DNA from: an uncultured Ignavibacterium sp.
GTDB lineage: Bacteria; Bacteroidota; Ignavibacteria; Ch128b
Reading direction: 5' to 3'
DNA length: 64,000 nucleotides
Assembly: GCA_964454895.1 (NCBI GenBank)
Contig: CAYVTW010000011.1
Location: 8,264-72,263, forward strand
The notes under the pieces were generated by a model that was not told the origin of the DNA, did not search any database, and saw only the letters and a list, made by a program, of their open reading frames with translations. Each line of letters begins with the position of its first letter. Positions within the stretch are counted from its first letter, which is position 1. Shown piece after piece: positions 2,724 to 20,607 of the stretch. Position numbers and translations under genes: made by a program.

Positions 2724-4679
2724 TTAATTTTTTTGATCTTGACTAAAAACTGTAATTAATGCATTTAACAGATCAGCTCGACGAACTGGTTTCGGTATAA
2801 ATATGATTCCCATTTCTTCTATTTGTTCTTTGAGTCCACTTAAAATATCAGCCGAAGTTGTTACAATCTTTAAAGTCTGAAGTTTTTCTCGCTTTCTAAT
2901 TTCTTTAATAACATCCATTCCTGGAATATCAGGTAACCTTAAATCCAGAACAATTCCATCATATTCTTCTGTGATAAGTTTATTTAAAGCAAGTTTACCT
3001 GAAAATACAGTTTCAACCTCACACTCTGGGAGCATCAATTTGAACAATTTATGATTGTATTCTTGATCATCAACAACAAGAATTCTCTTACCTTTAATAA
3101 TTGATAGATCTTTTGGAATTTGAACAACTTCTGCTTCTTCGATTTGCTCAGTTCTAGAAGCGGGATAAGTAAATGAGACAGTTGTTCCAACATTTTTCTT
3201 GCTTTCAATTATTATATCACCTTTCCATAGGTTAATAATTTCTTTTGAGATTGCAAGACCTAAACCCGATCCACCATATTTTTGTGATATTTCAGGTGCT
3301 TGTTCAAATGGAATAAAAAGTCGATTCAATTCTTCCTGAGTCATTCCAATTCCTGTATCGCTTATCTTAAATGTCAAAACTCCGTTATTGTAGCGAACAT
3401 CAACGGAGATTAATCCCTCATCAGTAAATTTGACTGCATTGTCGAGTATATTCAGTAGAACCCGTTGTAAGTTGTGTGCGTCAAGTAAGAAATAAGCATC
3501 TGGTTCAATGTTAGAGTTATAATCAAGGGCAACTTTTTTCCCAATAAGTTTTACTTCAATCATTGAAAGAACTGATTTCATCAAAGCAATTAAATTGTAA
3601 GGTTTCTCAATTATCTTGATTTTACTTGCTTCAGCTTTGGATAAATCCAAAATATCGTTCAAAACTTTTAGAAGATGTTCCGCACTTTTTTGAATGTAGG
3701 TTAAAAATTCTCTTACATCACCATCAATATCCATGCTTGAAAGAATATCCACATAGCCAAGAATAATATTTATAGGTGAACGAAGCTCGTGGGACATATT
3801 TGCCATAAATCTTGATTTAGTAGCGGCGAGTAAATCTTTTTGTTTAACGGTTTCTTCAAGTGCTCTGATGTATTCTCTTTCTTTTGTGAAATCATGAAAA
3901 GCAATTAAATAACATGGTCTTCTGTGATAGGTGATCTCAGATGGATAACAGTTTGTCCAGATTTTCATCTTATCATGATAACGCTGCATTTTTATTTGCT
4001 TTGGAAATGTATCGCTGCTTAAACCTTCAGAAAAAATTCTTTCAAGGACACTCACACTCTCAGCATCTATTAAATCCCAAATTTTTCTACCAAGATTTTC
4101 GCTGCTCGAAATTTGCAGCATTTCCATTCCTTTCCTATTAGTGAAAATAATATCATGTGTTTCCTTATCGACAATTAGGAGACCAATATTAATCTTATCC
4201 AATATTTCAGAGTGAACAAGTTGAAGTTGTTGAAATCTATCTTTGAAATTTTTCTCTTCGCTGATATCCCTAACTACTAACAAAAAATATAAACTTTTTT
4301 TTCCCTTGAGTTTGAAAGGATACAATGAAATATTTGTGAAAATTTCAGTTCCGTTCTTTGTCAATAAGTATGTTTCGTATTCGCTCAGAGACTTTTCAGA
4401 GAGTATCGAACGGATAATGGTGTTTCTTTCTTTTTCGAAATCGGAAATCAAAGATCCTATATGCTTCTTGGTTATACTCTTTTCACTGAAACCAAAAATT
4501 TTACTCGCAGCACCACCCCAGAATTCAATCAAACCTTTGGAGTTAATTATTATAAATGCTTCATTGGAGTTTTCTAAAATTGACTTATAGAAAGAGATAT
4601 CAAACTGTAATTGTCTGTTGGTAGATTTATTTTCTTGTTTAGTGACTTTTTTCATTGCTAAATACCATTTGATTTTCAA
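2724..4679 (-). CDS. Hybrid sensor histidine kinase (PAS-PAS-HisKA-HATPase_c-REC)
   Basis: H-box MSHELRSPINIILGY, G-boxes DTGIGM / GGSGLGLAISK, C-terminal receiver KRILVVDDQEYN...DGIVLDLRLPDIPG; two N-terminal PAS-like segments. Confidence 0.8.
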   Translation of the reverse strand: MKIKWYLAMKKVTKQENKSTNRQLQFDISFYKSILENSNEAFIIINSKGLIEFWGGAASKIFGFSEKSITKKHIGSLISDFEKERNTIIRSILSEKSLSEYETYLLTKNGTEIFTNISLYPFKLKGKKSLYFLLVVRDISEEKNFKDRFQQLQLVHSEILDKINIGLLIVDKETHDIIFTNRKGMEMLQISSSENLGRKIWDLIDAESVSVLERIFSEGLSSDTFPKQIKMQRYHDKMKIWTNCYPSEITYHRRPCYLIAFHDFTKEREYIRALEETVKQKDLLAATKSRFMANMSHELRSPINIILGYVDILSSMDIDGDVREFLTYIQKSAEHLLKVLNDILDLSKAEASKIKIIEKPYNLIALMKSVLSMIEVKLIGKKVALDYNSNIEPDAYFLLDAHNLQRVLLNILDNAVKFTDEGLISVDVRYNNGVLTFKISDTGIGMTQEELNRLFIPFEQAPEISQKYGGSGLGLAISKEIINLWKGDIIIESKKNVGTTVSFTYPASRTEQIEEAEVVQIPKDLSIIKGKRILVVDDQEYNHKLFKLMLPECEVETVFSGKLALNKLITEEYDGIVLDLRLPDIPGMDVIKEIRKREKLQTLKIVTTSADILSGLKEQIEEMGIIFIPKPVRRADLLNALITVFSQDQKN

Positions 4680-5846: not shown

Positions 5847-6542
5847 TTGAACGGTACCTTTTATATTGTTTCGACACATCTCGGAAATATTGATGATTTA
5901 GGTTTCCGTGCAAAGAGAGTTCTATCTGAATGTGATTATATAATTTGTGAAGAATTAAAGCCAGCCAGAAAGTTATTAAAACACCTTGGGCTATTCAAAG
6001 AATTAATTCAAATTAACGAGCACACAGAAAAAGAAAATTCAGCGATAGTAATACAACTCCTTAAAGAAGGTAAAAATTGTTGTTTGATTTCAGACACGGG
6101 CACACCAATTTTTTCTGATCCTGGAAATTACTTATTGAACTTAATTTATGCTTCAGATATCCCTGTATCCCTAATACCAGGCCCAGACTCTCTAATCCCC
6201 TCACTTATAATTTCCGGTTTTGATGTTAGTAAATTTTATTTTGCTGGTTGGTTATCTCCAAAATCAGATCAACGAAAAAAGCAACTGCAAGCACTCAAGT
6301 TCATTCAGAAGACAATAGCGTTGATGGACACTCCATATAGATTGAAGCAAGTATTACACGATATAAATGAAATTTTCGGTCCAGACACAATTATTTCTCT
6401 CGCCTGTGATTTAACAACGGAAAAAGAAAAAATTATCCGAGGTAAAGTTGTAGAAATTAATCGAATTGTAAATGAAGAAAATTTAAAGTGTGAGTTTGTC
6501 CTTGTAATTGGTAATCAAAAGAAGAAAAGGGAGTTAATTTAA
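5847..6542 (+). CDS. rsmI: 16S rRNA (cytidine1402-2'-O)-methyltransferase RsmI (tetrapyrrole-methylase fold)
   Basis: GTFYIVSTHLGNIDDLGFRAKRVLSECDYIICEELKPARKLLKHLGL matches the RsmI N-terminal signature (LYvVaTPIGNleDit.RA...L.evd.Ia.EDtR.t.kLL). Confidence 0.75.
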   Translation: MNGTFYIVSTHLGNIDDLGFRAKRVLSECDYIICEELKPARKLLKHLGLFKELIQINEHTEKENSAIVIQLLKEGKNCCLISDTGTPIFSDPGNYLLNLIYASDIPVSLIPGPDSLIPSLIISGFDVSKFYFAGWLSPKSDQRKKQLQALKFIQKTIALMDTPYRLKQVLHDINEIFGPDTIISLACDLTTEKEKIIRGKVVEINRIVNEENLKCEFVLVIGNQKKKRELI

Positions 6543-6550
6543 ACTCCCTT
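6527..6550. terminator. 9-bp-stem hairpin (AAGGGAGTT-aattta-AACTCCCTT) enclosing the convergent stop codons of rsmI (+) and the response regulator (-)
   Basis: Read directly from sequence; both stops (6540-6542 + ; 6539-6541 -) sit in the loop/stem; possible bidirectional terminator, though the flanking U-tracts are weak. Confidence 0.3.
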
Positions 6551-6919
6551 CAAACCTAAAGCATCCTTCACTTTTTCCATTAACGATTGGTAAGACACAG
6601 GTGATGTAACAAAATAATTTGCACCGAGTTGGAAGCAAAGCTCAACCACCTCTTTATCATTTAGTGCAGAAGCAACTATTACTTTTGTAATATTATTTTT
6701 TGAATTCGAGCGAATAGTTTTTAGTACTTCAAACCCGCTTACTTCTGGCATCATTAAATCTAAAATCACTAAATCGTATGTTTTTTCTGCAACCTTAGCT
6801 TTAGCTTCTTTCCCATTTGCTGCCGTATCTGCATCTAATCCCGCTCTTTTGAGATAATGCAAATGCATTTTTACTACTAAAGGATTGTCGTCTACAATAA
6901 GTATTTTATAATTATTCAT
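6539..6919 (-). CDS. Single-domain CheY-like response regulator receiver
   Basis: KILIVDDNPLVVKMH...DLVILDLMMPEVSGFEVLKTIR...KVIVASA: conserved DD / D(phospho) / T(S) / K receiver positions; no output domain (126 aa). Overlaps upstream gene by 4 nt (operonic). Confidence 0.8.
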   Translation of the reverse strand: MNNYKILIVDDNPLVVKMHLHYLKRAGLDADTAANGKEAKAKVAEKTYDLVILDLMMPEVSGFEVLKTIRSNSKNNITKVIVASALNDKEVVELCFQLGANYFVTSPVSYQSLMEKVKDALGLKGV

Positions 6920-8430
6920 TGTTCCTCTATTGGTAATTTTTGTTGCTGTGCTGTTGATTTATAAACTCTCCATTTTGGAGTTTGATATACTAAAGTAGTA
7001 AATTCAAATCCATTTTCAAAAGCATCTGGATACATAGCAGTTAGCTGATCAAAACCTGTTACAGTTAAATCAGGTCTTGGAACAACGATATAAGTTGCAG
7101 CAAATTGTGGTTGTTGTAATACTCTGATGTAATCGTATTGATATGGTAAATAAAATTGTTTTGGGCTTGAGTAGAAACAAACTATTGGATATCCAACTGC
7201 ATCATCAATCAGAATCATATCCTTCTCTGTAGTATTATCTTTCAAAAATTTTGCTACCTGTAGTTCTTCGTCAAAAATATCTTCAACAGGTTCACCTCTA
7301 AGCACAGTAGCGAAATTTTTTTCTGTAAGCTCAACTGAATTCTCTAAAGACTTGTAACCAAAAAATACAGATATGGCCATGATTATTATAACAACATAAG
7401 CATAAGCTGGTTTATATAAAGGTGAGTTAATAAAGTAATACATGATTATAATACTCAGAGGGATTAATACACCAAACCAGCTATAAGAAAGTGCAGAGAT
7501 ACCAAGAAATATAACAATAATTTGAAGAATGATTGGGGCGAATGCAGCAACAAAAATTGTAATTGTTCTAATAGTTGGTAGTGTGAAATAGTAGGCTGGA
7601 TATGTTATAAAGGACATCTTGAGCACTATCCATATTGACCAAATTAAATCACCTTTTCCTTGCGCAAGCTCAGGGCGTAAAGCCATTTCCTTTGAAACTT
7701 GTTTGAAATAGGAGTAGGGACTAAAATAAAAGTAAAAAGGTTCTCCGGCGAAAATCCAGTTCAAATAAACCCAAGAACCAAGAACAATAAAAGTTGGAAG
7801 AACTAGCATTAATGTAAGTGCAAATATTCTAACAACATTGAATTCAATTGTTTCGGATATTAGGAAAGGTGCAAATGGTATCAAAGCAAGGGTAAGGAAG
7901 AAAGTGTCGTATCTAATCCCTGACATAGCACCCAACGCTACACCAGATAATACTATGTAATAAGGTATTCTCGTTTCGTGAAATCTGAAAAATGAATAGA
8001 CAAATACCACAAAGAATAATACATAAAGTGTCTGACTTGGTTGAGCAAAGATTATATAAAGAAATACTGGATTAATTATCAACAATGCAGTAATTAATAA
8101 TTTCACTAAAGTATTTCCTGGTATCCACCGCAAATATCTTATACATAGAGTAATAACTAATGCACCCCAAAGAGTTGAAATTATCAAAGATGCCACAGGC
8201 GAGGACGATACAGCAAGAGGCAAATAAAAGAGATATGGCAGTGGAGGATAAATTAAACCGAGATTTTCCAACCTTGGTGGGTTACCTCTCATAGCTAGTT
8301 GGGCTTTCTCCATCAAAAAGATGCCTTCTTGAGCATAAAAATTAAAATTAAAGTAGAGATAAGCTCCCATTAAGAAAAGCCCAATCCATATAAAAAGAAA
8401 AATTATAATATCCCTTAGTTTTATTCCCAT
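6916..8430 (-). CDS. Polytopic inner-membrane protein, putative GT-C-fold glycosyltransferase (ArnT/PMT-like) with C-terminal periplasmic domain
   Basis: About 11-13 predicted hydrophobic helices over residues 1-350, then a soluble about 150-aa C-terminal domain; start ATG abuts the stop of the GT2 gene (8430/8431). Family assignment is inference from topology only. Confidence 0.4.
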   Translation of the reverse strand: MGIKLRDIIIFLFIWIGLFLMGAYLYFNFNFYAQEGIFLMEKAQLAMRGNPPRLENLGLIYPPLPYLFYLPLAVSSSPVASLIISTLWGALVITLCIRYLRWIPGNTLVKLLITALLIINPVFLYIIFAQPSQTLYVLFFVVFVYSFFRFHETRIPYYIVLSGVALGAMSGIRYDTFFLTLALIPFAPFLISETIEFNVVRIFALTLMLVLPTFIVLGSWVYLNWIFAGEPFYFYFSPYSYFKQVSKEMALRPELAQGKGDLIWSIWIVLKMSFITYPAYYFTLPTIRTITIFVAAFAPIILQIIVIFLGISALSYSWFGVLIPLSIIIMYYFINSPLYKPAYAYVVIIIMAISVFFGYKSLENSVELTEKNFATVLRGEPVEDIFDEELQVAKFLKDNTTEKDMILIDDAVGYPIVCFYSSPKQFYLPYQYDYIRVLQQPQFAATYIVVPRPDLTVTGFDQLTAMYPDAFENGFEFTTLVYQTPKWRVYKSTAQQQKLPIEEQ

Positions 8431-10362
8431 TTAGATTGTTCTCAAGATTTCTGGTTTTTTGACAGTTGTAACTCCATGAGTGGTCTTTTCCCAATAGAAA
8501 GGTTTGAAGATTAGTTGCCACAGAGCTTTATAGGCACCAAGTGAATGTAATATCCAATAAAATGGATTCAACAGAGCGTAAACCACAAGGCCATATAGTC
8601 TTCTTCTAAATACAGCAAGCATGTTCATGTAAACAACCATAGCATTTCCGATCAAGAGATTAAACAAAGAAATGTAAAGTACCCATGCTGGGAAAATTTC
8701 TGAAATCCATTGAGGTCTAAATATTAACCAAGTAATGAATAGAATCCATAGTGGTAGGTTAATTAGGAATGTTGCTGGGGTTCCACCAATGAATAGGAAG
8801 AATGCAAACATTCCTCTGAATCCAATTTTCTTATATAACTCAATTGGATTTCTCATGTGAACAAGGAAGGTCTGCATATAACCCTTAACCCATCTGGAAC
8901 GTTGGCGGATCCAGCTTCTAACTTTCTTGTTCGCCTCTTCATAAGTTGTTGAATTTATTGTTCCAACTTTATAACCTTTAGCATAAGCACGTACACCCAA
9001 ATCAGCATCTTCAGTAACATTAAATGGATCCCAAGCATTTAATTCAACTAACTTTTCCTTTATAAAATGATTACTTGTTCCTCCTAATGGAATTGGTACA
9101 TTTAACCTATCCATACCTGGTAACATATAGTCGAACCAGTATGAATATTCAAGAGTGAACATTTTGGTAAGAAAGTTTTCATTTGCATTGAAATAATTTA
9201 ATTGAGCTTGAATACAAATAACATCTTCAGGGAATTTTTTGAATCCAACAATTGCTTTTTTTAGTTGATCGGGTTCGGGGATGTCCTCAGCATCATAAAT
9301 CGTAACCACTTCTCCTCGACAAAATACTAAGCCATAGTTACACGCTTTCGGTTTTGTCTTTGGCTGCATATTAGGGACAACGATACATTCAAATATAGAG
9401 GGAATATCAAGATTTCGAATTTTATTAATTGTCGCAAAATCATCTTCCTCAAGTAAAATTTTTATATCAAGCTTATCTTTCGGATAATCAAGTTGACTTA
9501 ATGCATAAATTAATGTTTCAATCACTTCAGGTTCTTTATAAACAGGGAGAAGAATACTATAGACCGGCAAATCTTCGTCATGAAGTTCTCGGATTTCTGC
9601 TTGAGTTACAGCTTCGTATAATTCGAATCTAGCACCGGCAAGAGTTAGTACAAATTTAAAGCCGATCGAGAATAAGTAGAGCAGATTTACTATTGCCATC
9701 AATATTGTGAAAGTAACAGCAGCATTAATTGAAACACCAATGATAAATGCTGTTCCGAGTAAAGCAATTAAAATTACCTGAGGTAGAGTGAATGTTTCTA
9801 TAGCTGAACTTCTTTCATCTTCAATGAAGAGGCTATAGACAGCACTTTCTGCTAATTCTTGACCAAATGCTTTATGGAGAACCCATTGAATATCAACATC
9901 TGTGGCATAAAAGATTTTCAGTGTTGATTGACTTTTTTCAAATATATAATCAATCGATTCTTCATCCAAAGGATTTATCATCGCGACATAAATATAGTCA
10001 CCATTTCTCTTAAATGGGCAAATAAGTTTATCCTGTAAGTATGTTTGATCAAAAGACATTAAAAGTTCATAATCGATCTCTTGAGTTAATAAATCAACTT
10101 TACCAACTGGAACAGCTTTTCTAATTACAGTTTCATAATCTTTTCTAGAAATAAAACCATAAAAAAGAAGTGCTTTAGGAAAATAAAGCTTTTCTCTTTC
10201 AGCAAATGCTTCTATTTCCTCAATTTTTTCTTGAGAGAAAACTCTTTCATTTATTAAAACTTTTTGCAACGCCTTTTTTTCAAGACTGGAACCAGAGCCC
10301 GAGCTTGAAAGCTCGTCCGGCACCAACATCTCGTCCAAAGGCGTCCACGCTGTATCCGACAT
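8431..10362 (-). CDS. Processive family-2 glycosyltransferase, cellulose-synthase (BcsA)-like, with N-terminal GspE_N/MshEN-type domain and no PilZ domain
   Basis: GT2 catalytic motifs in order: YDAEDIPEPDQL (DxD), NVTEDADLGVRA (TED), QRSRWVKG (QxxRW); 2 TM helices before and about 4 after the catalytic domain; C-terminus ends after the last TM helix (no PilZ RxxxR/DxSxxG). The N-terminal 190 aa align to the T2SS-E N-terminal domain pattern (ELLMSFDQTYLQDKLICPFKRNGDYIYVAMINPLDEESIDYIFEKSQSTLKIFYATDVDIQWVLHKAFG). Confidence 0.7.
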   Translation of the reverse strand: MSDTAWTPLDEMLVPDELSSSGSGSSLEKKALQKVLINERVFSQEKIEEIEAFAEREKLYFPKALLFYGFISRKDYETVIRKAVPVGKVDLLTQEIDYELLMSFDQTYLQDKLICPFKRNGDYIYVAMINPLDEESIDYIFEKSQSTLKIFYATDVDIQWVLHKAFGQELAESAVYSLFIEDERSSAIETFTLPQVILIALLGTAFIIGVSINAAVTFTILMAIVNLLYLFSIGFKFVLTLAGARFELYEAVTQAEIRELHDEDLPVYSILLPVYKEPEVIETLIYALSQLDYPKDKLDIKILLEEDDFATINKIRNLDIPSIFECIVVPNMQPKTKPKACNYGLVFCRGEVVTIYDAEDIPEPDQLKKAIVGFKKFPEDVICIQAQLNYFNANENFLTKMFTLEYSYWFDYMLPGMDRLNVPIPLGGTSNHFIKEKLVELNAWDPFNVTEDADLGVRAYAKGYKVGTINSTTYEEANKKVRSWIRQRSRWVKGYMQTFLVHMRNPIELYKKIGFRGMFAFFLFIGGTPATFLINLPLWILFITWLIFRPQWISEIFPAWVLYISLFNLLIGNAMVVYMNMLAVFRRRLYGLVVYALLNPFYWILHSLGAYKALWQLIFKPFYWEKTTHGVTTVKKPEILRTI

Positions 10363-11113
10363 ATCCTGACATGTGTTTGTTGAACTTATAAACTATTGCT
10401 GGTTCAATTTTCAATAATGAAAAATCAAGATTCCTTAAAAATATTTGACTAAAAGTCAAATTTTGATCTACTTTATCATGATTTCCTAAACCTAAAATCA
10501 AACTTGTTGAAAAAAGTATAGTAACTCTTCTCGTAATATTTAAGCCAATAGTTCCACCCGCTCTTAATTGGTCTGATGGTGCTTCGAATCTTTTTCTAAT
10601 ACCAAAATAAATTTCCCAGAATCCTTGAGACATAGTCCTCCCAAACGGAGAACCGACAAGTGCTGTAACTTGCAAATCTACTTGTCCATTACCGAGTGGT
10701 GGATCACCAGGATTAGTGTAAAATGGAAAGGCAACTAAAAATTGCAAAGCAAGACTTGGAATATCTCTGCTCAACTGAAATTGTAGCCCTACTTCTTGAT
10801 CTCCAAAACCTCCATTGGTAATCAATCCGATACTATCACGATAGCTTAACCCATAATAAAACATATTAGCTAAAAACATTATATCATCATCAAGGCCGTA
10901 CTCATAATAAAGATTTGTTTCATACTTTGTAAAAATTCCTCCAAGTGGTAGAAAAAATCTTTCTCCATTTCTGTTAAAAATTGTTTCAGAAGAGTAAAAC
11001 GATTGAACGCCTGATAGAAAATACCTGTTCGTTTTCTGTTGCCATACACTGGCTTGCAGATTAACTATTAAGAATACAACTAATAACAATGGGTTAAAAA
11101 AGAATTTAACCAC
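10280..11113 (-). CDS. Small outer-membrane beta-barrel protein (porin-like); start uncertain, probably non-ATG near 11113
   Basis: Track ORF 10280..11167 overlaps the upstream gene by about 60 nt; a signal-peptide-like segment KFFFNPLLLVVFLIVNLQA starts about residue 19; alternating amphipathic beta-strand pattern and C-terminal ...LGLWFQS; 3' end overlaps the GT2 start by about 80 nt. Confidence 0.4.
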   Translation of the reverse strand: MVKFFFNPLLLVVFLIVNLQASVWQQKTNRYFLSGVQSFYSSETIFNRNGERFFLPLGGIFTKYETNLYYEYGLDDDIMFLANMFYYGLSYRDSIGLITNGGFGDQEVGLQFQLSRDIPSLALQFLVAFPFYTNPGDPPLGNGQVDLQVTALVGSPFGRTMSQGFWEIYFGIRKRFEAPSDQLRAGGTIGLNITRRVTILFSTSLILGLGNHDKVDQNLTFSQIFLRNLDFSLLKIEPAIVYKFNKHMSGYVGYSVDAFGRDVGAGRAFKLGLWFQS

Positions 11114-13205
11114 GGGCAATTCTAACTCCTCTTCTACTTCTTGTGTAAAGCAAAATAGATAAACCAATGATTATAATCCAAGCAATAATAATCCAAATGT
11201 ATTTGAATTTATCCCATTGGATACGGACTGGGACTTTTTCAACAGGTTGCGTATATAAAATTTTGTCAAGCGCTTCCGCTGTTTTGAAGACGAGTGGATA
11301 ATCAGCCCCACTCATAATAGCGACATTTCCATCTATATTGCCAATCCTTTGGCTAAATTGATCTGCAAGTTTGACAAGATATCCTTTCCCTTCCTGACCA
11401 TAGCTCGACACAAGAAGTACATTATTGCTTGTTAATGTCTTAGTTAATTGCATAACCGCAATAGGCATGTTGTCAGAGTACTCGAACATAACTTGCCTAG
11501 TAGAACTACTTATTATTTTAAAACTCTGACTTAAATCCAGCGGAAGATACTCGAATGAGTCTTTATTGTATTTAACGTCAGAAGATACAACAATATAATT
11601 GTTATTTGAATTTTCCATAGTTGCAAACATCTCTGCAAATGACATTATCGGAGGAAAGTATTGTTCCTGTTTAGATATTTTTTGAATTGCGTTAATTATC
11701 GAGGCTGCAGCTTGAATATGTTCAGGAAGTGGATTCGATTGAAATACTACATACGTATTAGTTAAAAATGAATTCGGGAAGTTATTGAAGTTTGATGCCT
11801 TATCCACATTTTCGGCAGTTACATCAAAGTATGAGTAAGAATAAACCTCGCCGACAAATTGAGTTAAATCATCTCGACATTCGCCTTCATCTGGAAAGTA
11901 ATTAAATTCAATTTCAAAAGCGTTAATTTTTTTAAATAGATATTTTGGAAGTTGAACCACTAAACCGTTAATTGTTCCTGTGTGGTCAAGTCTTTTACTT
12001 TCTATCAGAACATCGTTCAGATAAATGTTAATAAACCCATTTTGAAAATTTTGCCTGACTGGAGTGTATTTAGAGTACATGTAAAAATCTACAGAACCGA
12101 TAAATTTAGCCAATTCAAGTTCAGATATAAACATTGTAATTCTTAAACTACCTATTCCTTTAGTCTGAATTCTTTCAAATCCTAATTCATCTAAAGTTAA
12201 TCTATATTTATTACCAACGAAAGATTTAATTTTGAAAGGCTCTATGTATCTTACCAACGAAAAATTTGAAAGTAATTTATGATACTGTTTCGGATTAACA
12301 ATTGCAGCAGCAGATTTTTGAACCGTTTTATCATTATCACCTGTGACATATAAAATCTTTGTCCCGTTGATAATCCTGACAAATAACAACCCATCTTCAG
12401 TGGTGAATTGTTGTTTAGCCTGGTTAATTATTTCTGCTCTCTCGATCGAATACGGAACTGGAAGACTTAATAATTCATCTGTTTTACCAACTGCAATAAC
12501 ATGAGTGAAATCATTTATTTTATTTGGATCAATTTCTTCGAAGCTTCCATAAAAAATATTTTCCGATTTTACTAAATCGAGTATCCTTGCATTTAACCAC
12601 ATCACATTTCCAGCTAGAACTGGATTCATTCTCTTTGGAGTTAGTATAAGGATACGATCAAATTTATCACTAAGAAAATCTGCAATAGTATTCTTCAATT
12701 TCTCTGAATAACTTAGAACCAACTTAGATTTTTGTCTAATGACAATCCAAAGGCCTTGTGTAGCTAAGTCTCTACATCTATCATCTGTTATATTCAAGTA
12801 GCCACCAACTTCAATTTTCAAAAGTGGTTTTTCACTTATCAACAAATCTTCAAGTTTCACATCATTCAGAGGAATACGAATTATTGGATTTGCAGAAATA
12901 TTTTTGAAAAATGTTGTATACACAGGAACATCATTGATAGAAATCTTTAGATTTGAATAATCACTTAAAATTGTCGAAAAACTTGCGTGTAATTCAAAAT
13001 AACTATTTTGAAAATCTATACCTCCTCTTGGAACTGGGAAAAATAATACTTGGGCAGGTGTAATCCCATAAAGAACTATATCCTTCTGATACCCAATATC
13101 TTTTAATGAAATCTCCTTAAAATTTTGTGCATGAGAAAAACTCAGAAATACTTGCAATAAGATAGAAATAAAAAGAAAAGAAATACGCCTACTATTTTTA
13201 TTCAT
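11106..13205 (-). CDS. bcsB: Cellulose synthase regulatory subunit BcsB homologue (periplasmic, C-terminal TM anchor)
   Basis: Signal peptide, about 640-aa periplasmic region and a single C-terminal TM helix (YIWIIIAWIIIIGLSILLY-TRSRRG), as in BcsB. The segment DDRCRDLATQGLWIVIRQKSKLVLSY matches the conserved BcsB block (E. coli QDVCENPASTTLWLDVGRSSGLDLTY) position by position. Confidence 0.6.
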   Translation of the reverse strand: MNKNSRRISFLFISILLQVFLSFSHAQNFKEISLKDIGYQKDIVLYGITPAQVLFFPVPRGGIDFQNSYFELHASFSTILSDYSNLKISINDVPVYTTFFKNISANPIIRIPLNDVKLEDLLISEKPLLKIEVGGYLNITDDRCRDLATQGLWIVIRQKSKLVLSYSEKLKNTIADFLSDKFDRILILTPKRMNPVLAGNVMWLNARILDLVKSENIFYGSFEEIDPNKINDFTHVIAVGKTDELLSLPVPYSIERAEIINQAKQQFTTEDGLLFVRIINGTKILYVTGDNDKTVQKSAAAIVNPKQYHKLLSNFSLVRYIEPFKIKSFVGNKYRLTLDELGFERIQTKGIGSLRITMFISELELAKFIGSVDFYMYSKYTPVRQNFQNGFINIYLNDVLIESKRLDHTGTINGLVVQLPKYLFKKINAFEIEFNYFPDEGECRDDLTQFVGEVYSYSYFDVTAENVDKASNFNNFPNSFLTNTYVVFQSNPLPEHIQAAASIINAIQKISKQEQYFPPIMSFAEMFATMENSNNNYIVVSSDVKYNKDSFEYLPLDLSQSFKIISSSTRQVMFEYSDNMPIAVMQLTKTLTSNNVLLVSSYGQEGKGYLVKLADQFSQRIGNIDGNVAIMSGADYPLVFKTAEALDKILYTQPVEKVPVRIQWDKFKYIWIIIAWIIIIGLSILLYTRSRRGVRIARG

Positions 13206-14858: not shown

Positions 14859-15186
14859 AATATAATTTCTTTATGAATATCATAGCGGTTTGCTTCACAA
14901 CTAGTCCATTTGCTCCAAAAATCAACAAATAAGATTGAAGTTATAATTTCAAACAATAAATCTACTTTGAAATTAAAGTAAAGCTAAACTTCATATAATA
15001 AAATTTAAAGGTTCATTCATTTCAAAATAAAACACCTCTCAAATTGAAACACTCTAAAGAAATAAAACCATCAAAAACTGACAAAAATTTCAGCTTAATA
15101 AGGGGCATAACAATTGGCATTTAATAACTAATGAAAAAGTTTTCAAAAAAATCATTAGCAATAATTAAAAATTCATGGAGGTTAAC

Positions 15187-18100
15187 ATGAAACCTTTGAT
15201 ACAAAATCAATTCTGGCCAATAATCAAGTTAGTGGTGAGTTTTTTAATGATTATTGGCCTCATTTTCCCCACGAACTCAAATGCACAGAGTTCAAACTGT
15301 GACTTAAGTAAATTTGTCACATATACGCAAGGTGGTTGGGGAAACAAAGGAGGGAAAACTTGTAGTGGGGTTACGTTCATTACTGTTAAACAACTTGAAA
15401 CTGGAGCCGAGGTTTCAAAAGGTAATGGGACGGATAAACTTGGCTCAAATACAACTTTCACTTTCCCTAATGGTAAATCCGTAGTAATTCACACTTCTTG
15501 CTCACAACCTATCTATATAGGAATGACAGTTACAGCCGATGGATTTACTTACAAAATAACTCAACTCACAACAATTCCCTCCTCGACTACTTCTAATCCA
15601 GGAACAATCAGGGATTTATATTTTTCGGATGTATTCCCAACTGGTTTAGAAGTTGGAGGAATTTACAAACTAAAATTAACTTCTGCTTACGCAGTGGAGA
15701 AATTTTTACCCCAAGGTGGAAGTCCAAAAGCATTGGATAAAAACTACACTGACCCAACTAGCACGAAAGCAGGAGTTTTTGCGGGCCAAGTTGTGGCTCT
15801 TAAAATGAATGTTGCTTTTAATGATGCGGGTAAGATTGGTAGTGGTCCAGTTAAACTTGGTGATTTAATCGTTACAGCAGGACCTCTAGCAGGTAAGACA
15901 GTTTATCAAGTATTAGACTTAGCAAACATCGCACTTGGTGGTGGAACTACTCCATATACAATTTCGCAATTAAATGAAGCAGTAACCGATATTAACGAAA
16001 ATTTCAAAGATGGTAAGTACAATAAAGGTTTCTTAAGGTGCCCAGATTTACCGCAACTTGGTTCAATCTCCGGAACAGTTTTCTTCGATGTTAATGGTGA
16101 TGGAACCATGAATAACGATGAATTTGGGCTTCCAAATGTAAAAGTATACCTCTATTCAAATTCAATTTTAATCGATTCTACCTTTACAAACGAATCAGGA
16201 TTTTACAAATTTTCAAATCTGAATGCTGGAAATTACAGCGTAAAGGTTGTTGATCCATACATGTTGATATTAACAAATCCACCAAACCCAAAATCAGTAA
16301 TTCTTGCAAGTGGTGAAGCTAAGAACAACATTAATTTTGGTTACAAATGTGGTCAGCAACTTGCAAAAATTTCGGGTTATGTTTATGTGGATGCAAATCT
16401 TAATGGAATAAAAGATCCTGGCGAAGCACCACTAGCTAATGTAACAATCAAACTGTATGATCAAGATGGTGTAATAATAGGAACTACAACTACAAACTCG
16501 AGTGGATACTATGAATTCAGTGGATTAATTCCTGGAATTTATACTATTGAAGAAATAGACCCTGATCTATACAGAAGCACAACACCAAACTATATAAATC
16601 TTACACTATTAGCTGGACAACATTCACAGAATAATAATTTTGGTGATATACTTTCAGCTGATATTTGTGGGATGGTTTTCAACGATGAGAATGGTGATGG
16701 AGTTAGACAACCTTCTGAGTTAGGTATATCTGATGTTTTAATTGAATTATTTGAAATGCCATCGGGTAGTTTTGTCGCTTCAACAATAACTGGTGTCAAT
16801 GGTGAATATTGCTTTGGCTATTTAATTCCTGGAACTTACAAAATTAAACAGACCGATTTACCAGGATATATAAGCACAACTCCGAATGAAATAGTTAGAA
16901 CAGTAAATCAAGGCGATAAGAGTTATAACAACAATTTCGGTGATAAAATCGTAACGATTATGAAAGGTTCGATTGGTGATTTTGTGTGGAATGATTTGAA
17001 TAAAAATGGAATACAAGATCCAGGTGAACTCGGAATGCCAAATGTGATTGTTAAGCTTTACGATTGCAGCAACAACTGGATTAAAGAAATTACAACTAAC
17101 TCTAATGGATACTACAAATTTGATAGTTTAAATCCGGGTTCATATCAGATACTTATTCAACTACCATCTGGATATGCATTTTCACCAGCAAATCAGGGCT
17201 CTGATGATACAAAAGACTCAGACATAGATCCTTTAACCTGGAAATCACATTGCATTAGTTTACTAAGCGGACAAAATATTACTAATGTAGACGCTGGAAT
17301 ATATGAATTACCAACTTGCTCGATTGGTGACAGAGTATGGAATGATTTGAATAAAAACGGTATACAAGATGCTGGTGAGCCAGGTGTACCCAATATAAAA
17401 GTTAAACTTATCAGTTGTTCAACTTCTAATGTAGTTGCTATAACCACAACTAATTCTAGTGGAAATTATGTTTTCAATAATATTCCTTCGGGAAATTATC
17501 AAATTAAATTCTATGATTTACCGAATAATTGGGTATTTACTACAAAGGATGCTGGTTCAAATGACTTAATCGATTCCGATGCAGATCCATCAACAGGAAT
17601 GACCATTTGCTTCAATGTTGATCAATTCAATTGTGACAGCAATTCAACAAGGTGGGACGCTGGTATTTATTTCAATCCACCACAGCAATTTTGCTCAATT
17701 GGTGATAAAGTTTGGGAAGACTTAAATATAAATGGTATTCAGGATCCTAATGAGCCTGGAGTTGCGAATATAAAAGTGACTTTATTCGCTTGCTCTACAT
17801 CTACACCTATTGATGTAAAATATACAAATGCACAAGGTAATTATCTCTTTTCAAATGTTCCTGCTGGAAATTATTATATCAAATTTGAAAATATACCAAC
17901 CGGTTATGCTTTCACATTCAAAGATGTTGGATCTAATGATTTACTTGATTCAGATGTAGATCCATTAACGGGTAAGACAGCATGTTTCCCAGTTGATCCC
18001 AATGATTGCGAAAATAATTCTGTAAAATGGGATGCTGGAATTTATATCTGCCCACCAACATTTGAAGTCAGTGGTATGGTATTTAATGATTTGAATGGTA

Positions 18101-20607
18101 ATGGAATAAAAGACTTTGGCGAAGTGGGTATTCCAAATGTCTTAATAAAGTTGTGGGGAACATCAGCAAACTTGATTGCGACTACTCTAACCAATACTCA
18201 AGGTCAATTCGTATTCACTGGTGTTTTGCCTGGTCAATATCATGTTCAAGAAATAGATCCTCCAGGATATATTAGCACAACACCAAATTCCTTCTTCATC
18301 ACTGTTTCTTCTTCAAATGTAACGAATATTCTATTTGGAGATAAGGTAAAACCAACACCTGAACCTTGTGATTTAACAAAGTATGTAACTTACACACAAG
18401 ATCAATGGTGTCTTGATCCTGCAAAATCATTACTACTAAATAAATTCAATCAGATTTTCCCAAGTGGTTTCAAAATTGGTGATGCTGGTTCTCCTTACAC
18501 CATTACATTTACAAACGGAACAGCATTAAAGAATTTCTTACCACAAATTGGTGCTCCGGGTCAGTTAAATATGAATTATGTTAATCCAGCTACAACACCA
18601 GCAGGTCAATTTGCTGGAAATGTTGCTGCGTTGGCGCTAAATATTGCATTCAACGATTCAGGATTACTTGGTTCAACATCAACCACAAAACTTGGTAACC
18701 TTGTTGTTGCATCAGGGCCAATGAAAGATTACAAAGTTTATGAAGTTCTCTTACTTGCAAACAAAGCTCTTGGTGGTGGCACAACCCCATTCTCCATCCA
18801 GACTCTTAACGATGTTGTGTCAAAAATTAACTACAACTTCGCTTGCAATTGCAATTATGGTTATTTGATATGCCCACCTCTACCAGACTCTTGCGGTGGT
18901 GGATTTGATGCTGGTGTTGAATCAAATGCAAATCTTGCAGACTTATTATTGCAAAGATTAACAAAGATTGAATATGGAATGACAACAAAGATACTCCGTA
19001 ATCCAAAAGCTCCATTTTCAGCAAGTCTTGGATTGCGAGATATTTTCCCACCAGTTGGTCCAATGGGTTCAAGACCAGTTGAATCAACTCCATTTGATAT
19101 TCTTGGAATTTCCAATGCAACATCAGCCTATGCTATTGATTACAATCTCTCACTAGCAAAAGGTGATGTAAGAATTGCGAGCGTCTTCGCAACTACTACA
19201 AATCCACCTTACATTTATGAACACACAAAGGCTATCTGCGATAGATTGATAAATGCAGAACTTGATTACATCTCTCAAGTGAAAATAGATAATCATTACT
19301 TCTTCGCATCAGTTCTTGATAAAGCTGAAGAGGGAGTGAAAGACTATACAATTCACTTCAGCATTTACGAAGTTGGAAACAAATTCCTTGTAGATTCTAG
19401 ATGGTTGATCGAAGAGTATGAAGTTCCAGCCAATGCATCTAATGTTTATAATTTCCAAGTATGGGGAAGCAACTTCCAGAATGCGATTTATCTATCTGAA
19501 TTGATACTTGAACAATTCAAGTCAAAAGGTAAAGTCGAGTATCTCAATAAGAGCGCCGTCCCAACTTCACTTGTTTATGTGAAGAAAGGAAAATACAACC
19601 ACAACGGAACCATAGAATTGATCGTTAACAACGAACAGATAATATCTGATAATATCACGATCAAATTCAAAGCACGAGAAGTCCAAGGTGGTGCAAAGAA
19701 TGAATTCGTAAGAACATTCCAGATTAATCCAGGACTGAATACCCTGCTTATCAATACTGGAGTTCTTTCTGATGCCAATGTTTATATCAGCACAACAAAT
19801 GGCTTCAAAGATGAAATCTTTGTTAGCGGTGGTGCATATACATATTTGAGTGGCAGTGCTTCAAAAGTCAATGAATTCATAACAAATACTTTCTCTACAC
19901 CTTCATTGAATTCATTGCCAAAAGAATCTATGGTTTTGAGTGGTGGCGCAAGAATCAAAGGACAACTCGGTGATTGGATGACATTGTTTAGATCATTGAC
20001 AGCTAACACTGCACCATATGATTTAAGCGATTATGATGCAATTAGATTCACAATTCGTGGTTATGGAAATGTTCAAGTAAGATTTGAACAAGATGGTATA
20101 AAGAATTTTGATTATCATTCCAAGAAGGTCACTCTCGACGGTTCCGAGCAAGAATTGACTATACCATTCAGTGAATTCAAACAAATGAATGGAAACAAAC
20201 CTCTCGATCCAAGACTTATCAGAAAGCTATCAGTGATGATAAGTAAGAATGAGAATCCAACTCTAAACAATGTGGATGTTGAGATTAAGAACATAGTATT
20301 CTTGAAGAAACACAATGATGGTTCTACAAATACCGAGATACCAAAAGAATTCAAACTTGCTCAGAACTATCCTAACCCATTCAATCCAAGCACCTTAATT
20401 GAATACTCGGTTGCAAAACCAGAACGAATTACGATCAAAGTTTACAATGTTTTAGGAAAAGAAATTGCAACATTAGTTGATGAAGTAAAAGAGCCGGGCG
20501 TCTACTCAGTTAGATTTGATGCAAGTCAATTAAGCTCTGGAATTTACTTCTACAAGTTGCAAAGTGACTCATACAATGCAGTACGCAAGATGATTTTGCA
20601 GAAGTAA
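15187..20607 (+). CDS. Giant T9SS-sorted cell-surface adhesin-like protein (duplicated N-terminal module, 7 SdrD-B/Cna-B repeats, CBM-like domain, C-terminal Por sorting domain)
   Basis: GGAGG RBS at 15177-15181 favours ATG 15187 (MKPLIQNQ... signal peptide) over track start 15175. Seven approximately 120-aa repeats carry the SdrD B-type signature (GDxVWxDLNxNGIQDxGExGxPNxxVKL...TTNSxGxYxFxxxPxGxYxI). The module CDLSKFVTYTQGGW...GGTTPYTISQLNEAV recurs as CDLTKYVTYTQDQW...GGTTPFSIQTLNDVV. The C-terminus LAQNYPNPFNPSTLIEYSV...GIYFYKLQ is a T9SS C-terminal domain. Confidence 0.8.
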   Translation: MKPLIQNQFWPIIKLVVSFLMIIGLIFPTNSNAQSSNCDLSKFVTYTQGGWGNKGGKTCSGVTFITVKQLETGAEVSKGNGTDKLGSNTTFTFPNGKSVVIHTSCSQPIYIGMTVTADGFTYKITQLTTIPSSTTSNPGTIRDLYFSDVFPTGLEVGGIYKLKLTSAYAVEKFLPQGGSPKALDKNYTDPTSTKAGVFAGQVVALKMNVAFNDAGKIGSGPVKLGDLIVTAGPLAGKTVYQVLDLANIALGGGTTPYTISQLNEAVTDINENFKDGKYNKGFLRCPDLPQLGSISGTVFFDVNGDGTMNNDEFGLPNVKVYLYSNSILIDSTFTNESGFYKFSNLNAGNYSVKVVDPYMLILTNPPNPKSVILASGEAKNNINFGYKCGQQLAKISGYVYVDANLNGIKDPGEAPLANVTIKLYDQDGVIIGTTTTNSSGYYEFSGLIPGIYTIEEIDPDLYRSTTPNYINLTLLAGQHSQNNNFGDILSADICGMVFNDENGDGVRQPSELGISDVLIELFEMPSGSFVASTITGVNGEYCFGYLIPGTYKIKQTDLPGYISTTPNEIVRTVNQGDKSYNNNFGDKIVTIMKGSIGDFVWNDLNKNGIQDPGELGMPNVIVKLYDCSNNWIKEITTNSNGYYKFDSLNPGSYQILIQLPSGYAFSPANQGSDDTKDSDIDPLTWKSHCISLLSGQNITNVDAGIYELPTCSIGDRVWNDLNKNGIQDAGEPGVPNIKVKLISCSTSNVVAITTTNSSGNYVFNNIPSGNYQIKFYDLPNNWVFTTKDAGSNDLIDSDADPSTGMTICFNVDQFNCDSNSTRWDAGIYFNPPQQFCSIGDKVWEDLNINGIQDPNEPGVANIKVTLFACSTSTPIDVKYTNAQGNYLFSNVPAGNYYIKFENIPTGYAFTFKDVGSNDLLDSDVDPLTGKTACFPVDPNDCENNSVKWDAGIYICPPTFEVSGMVFNDLNGNGIKDFGEVGIPNVLIKLWGTSANLIATTLTNTQGQFVFTGVLPGQYHVQEIDPPGYISTTPNSFFITVSSSNVTNILFGDKVKPTPEPCDLTKYVTYTQDQWCLDPAKSLLLNKFNQIFPSGFKIGDAGSPYTITFTNGTALKNFLPQIGAPGQLNMNYVNPATTPAGQFAGNVAALALNIAFNDSGLLGSTSTTKLGNLVVASGPMKDYKVYEVLLLANKALGGGTTPFSIQTLNDVVSKINYNFACNCNYGYLICPPLPDSCGGGFDAGVESNANLADLLLQRLTKIEYGMTTKILRNPKAPFSASLGLRDIFPPVGPMGSRPVESTPFDILGISNATSAYAIDYNLSLAKGDVRIASVFATTTNPPYIYEHTKAICDRLINAELDYISQVKIDNHYFFASVLDKAEEGVKDYTIHFSIYEVGNKFLVDSRWLIEEYEVPANASNVYNFQVWGSNFQNAIYLSELILEQFKSKGKVEYLNKSAVPTSLVYVKKGKYNHNGTIELIVNNEQIISDNITIKFKAREVQGGAKNEFVRTFQINPGLNTLLINTGVLSDANVYISTTNGFKDEIFVSGGAYTYLSGSASKVNEFITNTFSTPSLNSLPKESMVLSGGARIKGQLGDWMTLFRSLTANTAPYDLSDYDAIRFTIRGYGNVQVRFEQDGIKNFDYHSKKVTLDGSEQELTIPFSEFKQMNGNKPLDPRLIRKLSVMISKNENPTLNNVDVEIKNIVFLKKHNDGSTNTEIPKEFKLAQNYPNPFNPSTLIEYSVAKPERITIKVYNVLGKEIATLVDEVKEPGVYSVRFDASQLSSGIYFYKLQSDSYNAVRKMILQK
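16060..18330 (+). repeat. Seven tandem approximately 360-nt intragenic repeats (SdrD-B-like domains) within the giant adhesin gene
   Basis: Nucleotide-level similarity visible e.g. 16968-17075 vs 17319-17425 vs 17693-17800 (...ggtgaYaRagtWtggRaWgaYttRaatAWaaaYggWatacaRgat...). Confidence 0.7.

Follow-up and report, generated by a model that had tools for sequence, protein, structure and literature searches.

A degenerate MshEN domain on a predicted BcsB-associated polysaccharide synthase from an uncultured Ignavibacterium

What does an MshEN domain do on a membrane-embedded polysaccharide synthase when the residues that mark binding of cyclic di-GMP (c-di-GMP) are replaced? The question is raised by a 64,000-nucleotide (64-kb) stretch of DNA from an uncultured Ignavibacterium sp. 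(GCA_964454895.1, contig CAYVTW010000011.1, positions 8,264 to 72,263; hereafter the window), which encodes a glycosyltransferase (GT) with such a domain at its N terminus. In canonical MshEN domains, the four-helix subdomain MshEN_N is the part that binds c-di-GMP. An original prediction, made from the letters alone, had proposed a GspE_N/MshEN-type domain on this protein and offered c-di-GMP sensing or partner docking as its role. Here we describe a domain that appears complete in fold and degenerate in both c-di-GMP motifs, place it among its relatives in other phyla, and weigh what it may do.

An MshEN domain on a processive synthase

The GspE_N/MshEN-type assignment was borne out by Pfam, by a family-profile search against the PDB and by AlphaFold modelling with Foldseek. 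Pfam places MshEN (PF05157) at residues 85–171 (E = 8.7e-11; 42.1 bits against a cut-off of 23.1), and NCBIfam models align residues 32–173 with the N terminus of PilB and residues 29–175 with the MshEN part of NfrB. A single-sequence phmmer search of the PDB with residues 1–200 gave only marginal matches (PilB 0.024, MshE 0.19), so a family profile was needed; one built from 26 family N termini matched PilF (5e-20), PilB (7e-17), MshE (4e-9) and XpsE (1e-6), and its matches to solved structures span both subdomains. The AlphaFold model of residues 1–192, with a block-mean predicted local distance difference test (pLDDT) score of 92–96 across residues 31–160, has the two-subdomain MshEN fold: four helices, then a three-stranded alpha/beta unit and a long helix at 155–181. 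All top 19 Foldseek matches of this model in the PDB are MshEN/GSPII-type domains, the best being PilF GSPII-A (9g1w; E = 2.9e-7, template modelling (TM) score 0.81), and further matches include MshE (5htl), XpsE-N (2d27/2d28), the X. citri PilB-N:PilZ complex (7lkm) and PilF GSPII-B. Residues ~28–181 are thus predicted, far beyond chance, to form a complete two-subdomain MshEN/GSPII domain.

The internal layout differs from the two helical sub-repeats first proposed. The two stretches belong to different subdomains and are not repeats: LYFPKALLFYGFISRKDYETVIRKA makes up helices alpha3–alpha4 of MshEN_N and holds motif II, and LICPF...YATDV is the beta1-beta2-alpha-beta3 core of MshEN_C, which carries a P116...VAM...P131xD signature with both prolines invariant. 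The proposed extent (9795..10245, GT residues 40–190) had the position right and the start wrong, as the domain begins at about residue 28 and motif I falls partly outside that interval.

Beyond the domain, three overlapping family 2 glycosyltransferase (GT2) models of Pfam cover residues 268–547. The signatures of processive GT2 synthases are present and invariant in 120 homologues: D308, D357AED360, T450ED452 and Q487RSRW491, the last just past the GT-A domain in the first interface helix. The full-length AlphaFold model (pLDDT 86.9, predicted TM score 0.85) has BcsA, hyaluronan synthase and chitin synthase as its top Foldseek matches, with E values of ~1e-12 to BcsA and hyaluronan synthase. 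Sequence and model together point to a BcsA/hyaluronan-synthase-like, processive, membrane-embedded polysaccharide synthase.

The fusion itself is known, catalogued and very widespread, and adds nothing new as such. All 120 closest homologues (50–91% identity) have precomputed PF05157 and GT2 hits, under names such as 'Type II secretion system protein GspE N-terminal domain-containing', 'cellulose synthase/PGA synthase-like glycosyltransferase' and 'glycosyltransferase XagB'. A scan with one genome per species found at least 600 genomic loci encoding orthologues, in Bacteroidota, Ignavibacteria, Chloroflexota, Thermotogota, Aquificota, Cyanobacteria, Actinomycetota, Gemmatimonadota, Synergistota, Verrucomicrobiota and Pseudomonadota; the closest genomic match among the matches listed is an Ignavibacterium album metagenome-assembled genome (MAG; 80% identity). 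Wang et al. 2016 (PMC5013675) already mention that MshEN occurs fused to glycosyltransferases, and with NfrB and the bcsB-xagBCD and xag literature this leaves the fusion without novelty. That such a domain normally belongs to secretion ATPases, as the original prediction had it, is out of date in view of the fusions in Wang et al., NfrB and the 120 homologues.

The c-di-GMP motifs and gene neighbourhoods of the family

HMMER aligns residues 29–134 gap-free to residues 7–112 of MshE, which places the two 24-residue motifs at residues 31–54 and 60–83, with the canonical five-residue spacer kept at 55–59. Read against the consensus RLGxxLLxxGLLxxxxLxxxLxxQ, Arg1 is replaced by A31 in motif I and Y60 in motif II, Gly3 by Q33 and P62, and Gln24 by A54 and A83. 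At Leu2 stand L32 and F61, at Leu17 I47 and Y76, and at Leu21 E51 and I80; Gly10 is R40 in motif I and is kept as G69 in motif II. The relaxed pattern of Wang et al., [RKPN]hGxxhhxx[GAS]hhxxxxhxxxhxx[QNKRYWST], has no match in the query nor in any of its 120 closest homologues. The same pattern matches the positive controls MshE and Geobacter PilB, together with 54 of 140 distant MshEN proteins. These 140 came from searching representative proteins exhaustively with the first 179 residues and are mostly ATPase, DnaA-like and multi-MshEN proteins, with few family members, so they serve as a control for the motif pattern and not for the history of the family.

Arg1, Gly3 and Gln24 are also replaced in both motifs in 120 of the 120 closest homologues and in nearly all of the 59 Gly3-less family loci described below, most of which are from Bacteroidota and Ignavibacteria. 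Wang et al. trace the loss of binding by XpsE to eight positions, of which five (G11, L29, R38, G40 and Q61) are substituted here. In NfrB, the Gly3 mutant G491L has the strongest defect among the mutants (PMC8669469), and PilF GSPII-A, the best structural match of the query domain, is a documented c-di-GMP non-binder. Because the Arg, Gly and Gln of both motifs are replaced, a loss of the kind that the original prediction had itself named as refuting it, this MshEN domain most likely lacks canonical c-di-GMP binding, and the sensing role proposed for it is not supported for this copy.

To place the copy in its family, the GT open reading frames (ORFs) from 86 fetched loci and the window were taken, their N termini aligned to MshE and each motif scored out of seven. 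Near-perfect motifs occur in Thermomicrobium/HR28, Chloroflexia, Anaerolineae, Aquificota, Thermotogae, Gemmatimonadota, Thiobacillus, a gammaproteobacterium, Actinoplanes and Klenkia; one example reads RLGEALVARGLLTQQDLNRALEYQ-rrtgd-RIGRILIALGLIRRRQLYHVLAE, and most such orthologues score 6–7 of 7 on both motifs. In Bacteroidota, Ignavibacteria and Kryptonia, nearly every member lacks Arg1 and Gly3 in both motifs. Scores in Bacteroidota and Ignavibacteria are 1–4 for motif I and 3–5 for motif II, with the sole exception of Pedobacter frigidisoli (L029), where motif I retains its Gly3 and the scores are 5 and 4. The BcsB-like and 504-amino-acid (504-aa) flanking genes occur with both classes, and the two motif classes are therefore orthologous systems: the BcsB-like gene adjoins the GT in 61 of the 87 loci, and the 504-aa gene is present in 66 of 87.

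The neighbouring genes follow the motif state. Three of the 22 loci with Gly3 in both motifs have a Pfam-confirmed GGDEF gene within 8 kb, and none has a same-strand histidine kinase gene within 4.5 kb; for the 59 loci with Gly3 in neither motif the counts are 0 and 49. Fisher tests give p = 0.018 for GGDEF and 1.7e-12 for the kinase, values that are overstated as the loci are not phylogenetically independent. Loss of the motifs thus co-varies with a change from GGDEF to kinase or receiver neighbours. Matches to a GG[DE]EF regular expression at two further loci (L037, L065) were rejected as false, as Pfam finds no GGDEF domain there.

The kinase of Bacteroidota is typically a ~450-aa HisKA–HATPase_c protein encoded next to the BcsB-like gene, and it has the look of an orphan kinase that serves the polysaccharide operon alone. 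Its gene directly precedes and often overlaps the BcsB-like gene, usually with no receiver gene within 7 kb (L005, L008, L010–L017, L019–L032, L034–L036, L038–L045, L047, L048, L051–L053, L059, L060, L063, L071, L073 and L075). A single-domain receiver gene lies beside the kinase gene in some Flavobacteriia and in one other Bacteroidetes MAG. In Ignavibacteria the receiver gene is the last of the operon, with a hybrid kinase gene 1.9 kb further on.

Possible roles of the degenerate domain

Although the domain has lost its motif residues, it does not look abandoned. Across 120 sequences there are no gaps in residues 85–245 and 2% gaps in residues 29–84; over residues 1–28 the family alignment is 76% gaps, with a pairwise identity of 13%. 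A clade signature, SF-K--L--GYISRK-Y, lies on the alpha3-turn-alpha4 face (S/Y60, F61, K63, L66, G69, S72, R73, K74 and Y76). The best-conserved stretch of the N-terminal region is residues 155–192, the helix that leads into the membrane, with D155, W160, G167, L178, S186 and A187 invariant. The near absence of gaps, the signature and the conserved connecting helix argue for a retained function rather than decay. We consider it very improbable that the domain is an evolutionary remnant with a purely structural role, stabilising the N-terminal transmembrane (TM) helices or synthase oligomerisation and receiving no signal. Such a remnant would fit the much faster evolution of MshEN than of the catalytic core (query identity to non-Ignavibacteria members is 20–29% in the domain against 70% in the GT core) and the fact that conservation peaks in the connecting helix and not in the ligand-binding subdomain. 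It fits poorly with the absence of deletions in 120 homologues and with the conserved G69-S72-R73-K74 signature, since conservation of a surface-turn motif that includes three charged or polar residues is not to be expected of a pure spacer.

The reading that we favour, and hold to be probable with some reserve, is that MshEN has been kept as a structural, autoregulatory or docking module after canonical c-di-GMP sensing was lost. The GT would polymerise and translocate an exopolysaccharide within a BcsB-associated, xag-type synthase operon, with the cytoplasmic MshEN domain joined to the first TM helix by a long, conserved and rigid helix. In orthologues with canonical motifs, MshEN would presumably be a c-di-GMP switch of the synthase, as in NfrB, and a c-di-GMP reading probably holds for orthologues in other phyla. 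In Bacteroidota, Ignavibacteria and Kryptonia, the ligand-contacting Arg, Gly and Gln have been replaced and the fold is kept without deletions, and regulatory input has probably moved to two-component signalling, which would enter through the operon receiver in the window organism and through the operon histidine kinase in Bacteroidota. On the neighbourhood evidence, the receiver or kinase may also be linked in function to the MshEN domain.

Several observations weigh against this reading. According to Wang et al., MshE binds c-di-GMP mainly through hydrophobic contacts, and exchanging Arg9, Asp12 or Gln32 singly weakens binding by less than 5-fold. The hydrophobic skeleton is largely kept here (L32, L36, I37, V41, F42, I47, F61, L65, L66, F70, I71, Y76 and I80), as is Gly10 of motif II, so this copy may bind c-di-GMP weakly or in a non-canonical way. 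The most conserved MshEN_N residues, K63, S72, R73 and K74, sit on the motif II helices; three are basic, and they may equally form a retained site for an anionic ligand. No GGDEF or EAL gene lies in the 64-kb window, and an Rfam scan of it found no c-di-GMP riboswitch or any other family, results that are uninformative on the c-di-GMP signalling of the organism. Literature searches on GGDEF or diguanylate cyclase proteins in Ignavibacterium found nothing usable. On the two-component side, the link to kinase and receiver genes is a correlation of neighbourhoods in which a few related orders predominate, the hybrid kinase gene in the window lies outside the operon, and the Kryptonia loci have neither a kinase nor a receiver gene.

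Some of these points would also suit a domain that is still a c-di-GMP receptor, binding through the hydrophobic skeleton with K63, R73 and K74 and activating the synthase as in NfrB and BcsA. The 24+5+24 spacing, the motif II face as the best-conserved part of the MshEN_N subdomain and the canonical motifs of orthologues elsewhere speak for it as well. We nevertheless judge it decidedly unlikely. Both Gly3 positions, whose backbone amides read guanine O6 and N7, have become bulky or rigid (Q33 and P62); in NfrB, G491L at the equivalent position is the most damaging mutation (PMC8669469). Motif I has also exchanged Leu21 for Glu and Gly10 for Arg. In XpsE and PilF GSPII-A, a similar or smaller set of changes comes with loss of binding. 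The relaxed motif has no match, 0 of the 59 degenerate loci lie near a GGDEF gene, and Bacteroidetes have few or no GGDEF genes (PMC7288161).

Of the two roles first offered for the domain, partner docking seems more likely than c-di-GMP sensing on the present comparison. In its specific form, MshEN would have been repurposed as a dock for the operon receiver (in Ignavibacteria and some Flavobacteriia) or for the kinase (in Bacteroidota), with phosphorylation gating synthesis, which we regard as unlikely. Precedents exist in the X. citri PilB–PilZ pair (PMC8389850) and in the contact of the EpsE/GspE N1 domain with EpsL/GspL. Translation of the receiver is coupled to that of the operon, and as the protein lacks an output domain it must act through protein contacts; the kinase gene directly adjoins the BcsB-like gene on its upstream side in ~45 Bacteroidota loci and in no canonical-motif locus. 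This support is purely correlative, however, and the target of the receiver or kinase could be another subunit, or either could influence transcription by way of an unlinked partner. Neither gene is present at the Kryptonia loci, most Mucilaginibacter loci have the kinase but no receiver within 7 kb, and the Ignavibacteria receiver lacks the conserved Lys. That a former c-di-GMP receptor was rewired in Bacteroidota and Ignavibacteria, where c-di-GMP signalling is largely absent, into a docking platform for two-component proteins (the CheY-like receiver here, the operon kinase in Bacteroidota), phosphorylation replacing the second messenger, is to our minds similarly doubtful. In a bolder variant, the altered pocket (K63, S72, R73 and K74) may bind another nucleotide, for example c-di-AMP.

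The operon and related systems

The favoured reading, of a retained module without canonical sensing, is set in an operon that runs on the minus strand in the order BcsB-like gene, 295-aa exported protein, GT, 504-aa membrane protein and receiver, tightly packed or overlapping (Table 1). The set of BcsB-like, GT and 504-aa genes recurs across phyla, and by gene content and order the locus is assigned as a xag-type, BcsB-associated, synthase-type exopolysaccharide operon.

Table 1. Features of the synthase gene, its product and the surrounding operon in the window
Feature	Residues	Coordinates	Strand	Basis and remarks
MshEN-GT2 processive membrane glycosyltransferase gene	1–643	8431..10362	minus	ORF list and Pfam; product 643 aa
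N-terminal tail	1–27	10282..10362	minus	Ser/Gly-rich, disordered (pLDDT < 50), unconserved
MshEN_N four-helix bundle (H28–38, H44–56, H61–67, H73–83)	28–84	10111..10281	minus	Model, HMMER alignment to MshE residues 7–62, Foldseek
Motif I, degenerate, ALQKVLINERVFSQEKIEEIEAFA	31–54	10201..10272	minus	
Motif II, degenerate, YFPKALLFYGFISRKDYETVIRKA	60–83	10114..10185	minus	
MshEN_C alpha/beta subdomain (strands E114–120, E123–128, E147–152, flanking helices)	85–154	9901..10110	minus	Pfam and model
Connecting helix H155–181 and short interfacial segment into TM1	155–192	9787..9900	minus	Alignment and model
Two N-terminal TM helices (H193–212, H214–244)	193–245	9628..9786	minus	Model; hydropathy segment 188–243
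GT-A catalytic domain	266–480	8923..9567	minus	Pfam, invariant columns; D308, D357-x-x-D360, T450-E-D452
Interface helices and C-terminal TM bundle (presumed polymer channel)	481–620	8503..8922	minus	Model, Foldseek, hydropathy
BcsB-like periplasmic subunit, 699 aa, first operon gene		11106..13205	minus	Pfam BcsB E = 1.4e-24
295-aa ORF, N-terminal hydrophobic signal-like segment		10280..11167	minus	Hydropathy; overlaps both neighbour genes
504-aa multipass membrane protein with C-terminal soluble domain, directly downstream of GT		6916..8430	minus	At least 9 hydrophobic segments
Single-domain response-regulator receiver, 126 aa, last operon gene		6539..6919	minus	Pfam Response_reg E = 5.7e-26
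Terminator-like hairpin, 10-bp stem then T-run, straddling the receiver stop codon		6526..6551	minus	
Hybrid PAS-HisKA-HATPase-REC histidine kinase		2724..4679	minus	Pfam; 1.9 kb downstream, two opposite-strand genes between

The GT gene has an alternative start at M12 (10329), as used by the closest homologues (P0001–P0003 begin MLVPEEL). The BcsB-like protein has a signal peptide and a C-terminal TM anchor (hydropathy segments 8–26 and 666–691), and the part of the BcsB model that matches is the first ~150 residues of that model. At loci of Kryptonia, Pedobacter, Flavobacteriia and Aquificota, orthologues of the 295-aa protein are likewise encoded between the BcsB-like protein and the GT, and the protein is a possible outer-membrane or periplasmic export component. 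Its ORF overlaps its neighbours by unusually long stretches, 83 nucleotides (nt) over the GT start (50 nt if M12 is used) and 62 nt over the end of the BcsB-like gene; its listed start is TTG, and the true start is uncertain. The 504-aa protein has weak, GT-C-like similarity to PMT_2 (Pfam E = 0.009, below the cut-off), and its homologues come without source annotation. Pfam and NCBIfam scans assign no family to the 295-aa or 504-aa protein, and PDB sequence searches with these two and the BcsB-like protein returned nothing.

The receiver gene overlaps the 504-aa gene by 4 nt and occupies the same place at L001, L002 and L007. The acidic pocket and the phospho-acceptor Asp54 are both intact in the receiver; in all three Ignavibacteria orthologues (the window, L001:11413–11793 and L007:10432–10809) the K-P motif has Ser in place of its otherwise conserved Lys ('TSP'), and the motif is 'KP' in operon-adjacent Bacteroidota receivers. 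The hairpin at its stop codon is the probable end of the operon. The hybrid kinase is arranged in the same way at L001, L002 and L007 and is a possible partner of the receiver, a link to the operon that we infer from conserved proximity in Ignavibacteria. In a Kryptonia locus (L003:11440–13921), genes for an HlyD-like membrane-fusion protein, a VTC-domain protein and a DUF4956 protein lie downstream in place of the Ignavibacteria receiver.

Among known systems, a close likeness is to XagB of the Xanthomonas xagABCD biofilm-polysaccharide operon. JGI labels several homologues as XagB at 76–77% (P0005) and 50–52% (P0088, P0089 and P0102) identity, and the query operon of BcsB-like, GT and further membrane proteins matches the bcsB-xagB-xagC-xagD layout, which Kato et al. 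2015 described in stalk-forming iron oxidisers (PMC4643136); xag genes are needed for biofilm exopolysaccharide in Xanthomonas (PMC3609779). The query copy differs in belonging to a degenerate-motif clade and in an operon that ends with a receiver gene. The 80 loci returned include no Xanthomonas locus, and the XagB likeness rests on labels and operon layout.

With NfrB of Escherichia coli the protein shares a processive GT2 (DxD, TED and QxxRW), an MshEN domain and a place in a synthase-dependent secretion operon. NfrB is the characterised c-di-GMP-activated GT–MshEN enzyme, with a fully conserved motif and a dissociation constant of ~1 uM (PMC8669469), and illustrates how such a domain can turn a synthase on. 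Its GT is N-terminal and its MshEN C-terminal, whereas the query has the reverse order, and its partners are NfrA and YbcH in place of the BcsB-like and 504-aa proteins. Filing the protein as NfrB was rejected on the reversed domain order, a score of 19.5 bits for NF008411 against a cut-off of 1170, and the different neighbours. For the catalytic and membrane part, BcsA is the protein that matches best in fold, and the query operon, too, encodes a BcsB-like partner, anchored by a C-terminal TM segment. NCBIfam models of cellulose and PGA synthases match the catalytic half far below their equivalog cut-offs, and filing as the cellulose synthase BcsA was likewise rejected (no PilZ hit in Pfam; TIGR03030 62.6 against 699.1; PRK11498 51.6 against 992).

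The domain itself is most like XpsE-N of X. campestris, PilF GSPII-A of T. thermophilus and PilB-N of X. citri, which have the two-subdomain fold and miss consensus residues. None of the three binds c-di-GMP, and X. citri PilB-N docks PilZ instead (PMC8389850). Those domains sit on secretion or pilus ATPases, whereas the query domain sits on a membrane GT, has other substituted residues and carries its own clade signature.

Further architectures and neighbours were seen along the way. Protein P0188 (1109 aa), from the representative search, is a natural fusion of MshEN and GT2 with a complete phosphoglucomutase/phosphomannomutase (PGM_PMM I–IV), which hints that family members use a donor derived from hexose-1-phosphate. 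In Mucilaginibacter paludis (L005:3236–4372), a divergent GH5 'Cellulase' gene lies just upstream of the kinase–BcsB–GT operon and recalls BcsZ of cellulose operons, a weak hint of a beta-glucan; together with the phosphoglucomutase fusion it weakly hints at a glucan polymer. The GT ORFs of the cyanobacterial loci L061, L064 and L081 extend ~150–215 residues upstream of MshEN (767–776 aa from stop to stop), and that of Klenkia (L068) has 948 aa with a C-terminal extension; these ORFs may hold additional domains. In P0236, P0237 and P0204, also from the representative search, an MshEN domain with canonical motif I is fused to a DnaA-type AAA+ ATPase (Bac_DnaA/IstB), an architecture absent from those listed in the accessible portion of Wang et al. 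Elsewhere in the window, 15175..20607 (plus strand) encodes a 1810-aa protein with seven SdrD_B repeats and 21220..24036 (minus strand) a 938-aa alpha-amylase-family protein, each with a C-terminal Por_Secre_tail of the type IX secretion system, consistent with an organism of the FCB group.

For the family, the main consequence is one of interpretation. Orthologues split cleanly into those with intact and those with degenerate motifs, so finding MshEN by Pfam on a glycosyltransferase does not justify calling the enzyme 'c-di-GMP regulated'. The loss of the motifs across a clade and its association with two-component genes are a modestly interesting side result. With its ties to kinase and receiver genes rather than to diguanylate cyclase genes, the degenerate class offers a natural experiment on rewired post-translational control of a synthase in lineages without the second messenger, and it suggests where the regulation of the biofilm matrix might be sought in Bacteroidota and Ignavibacteria.

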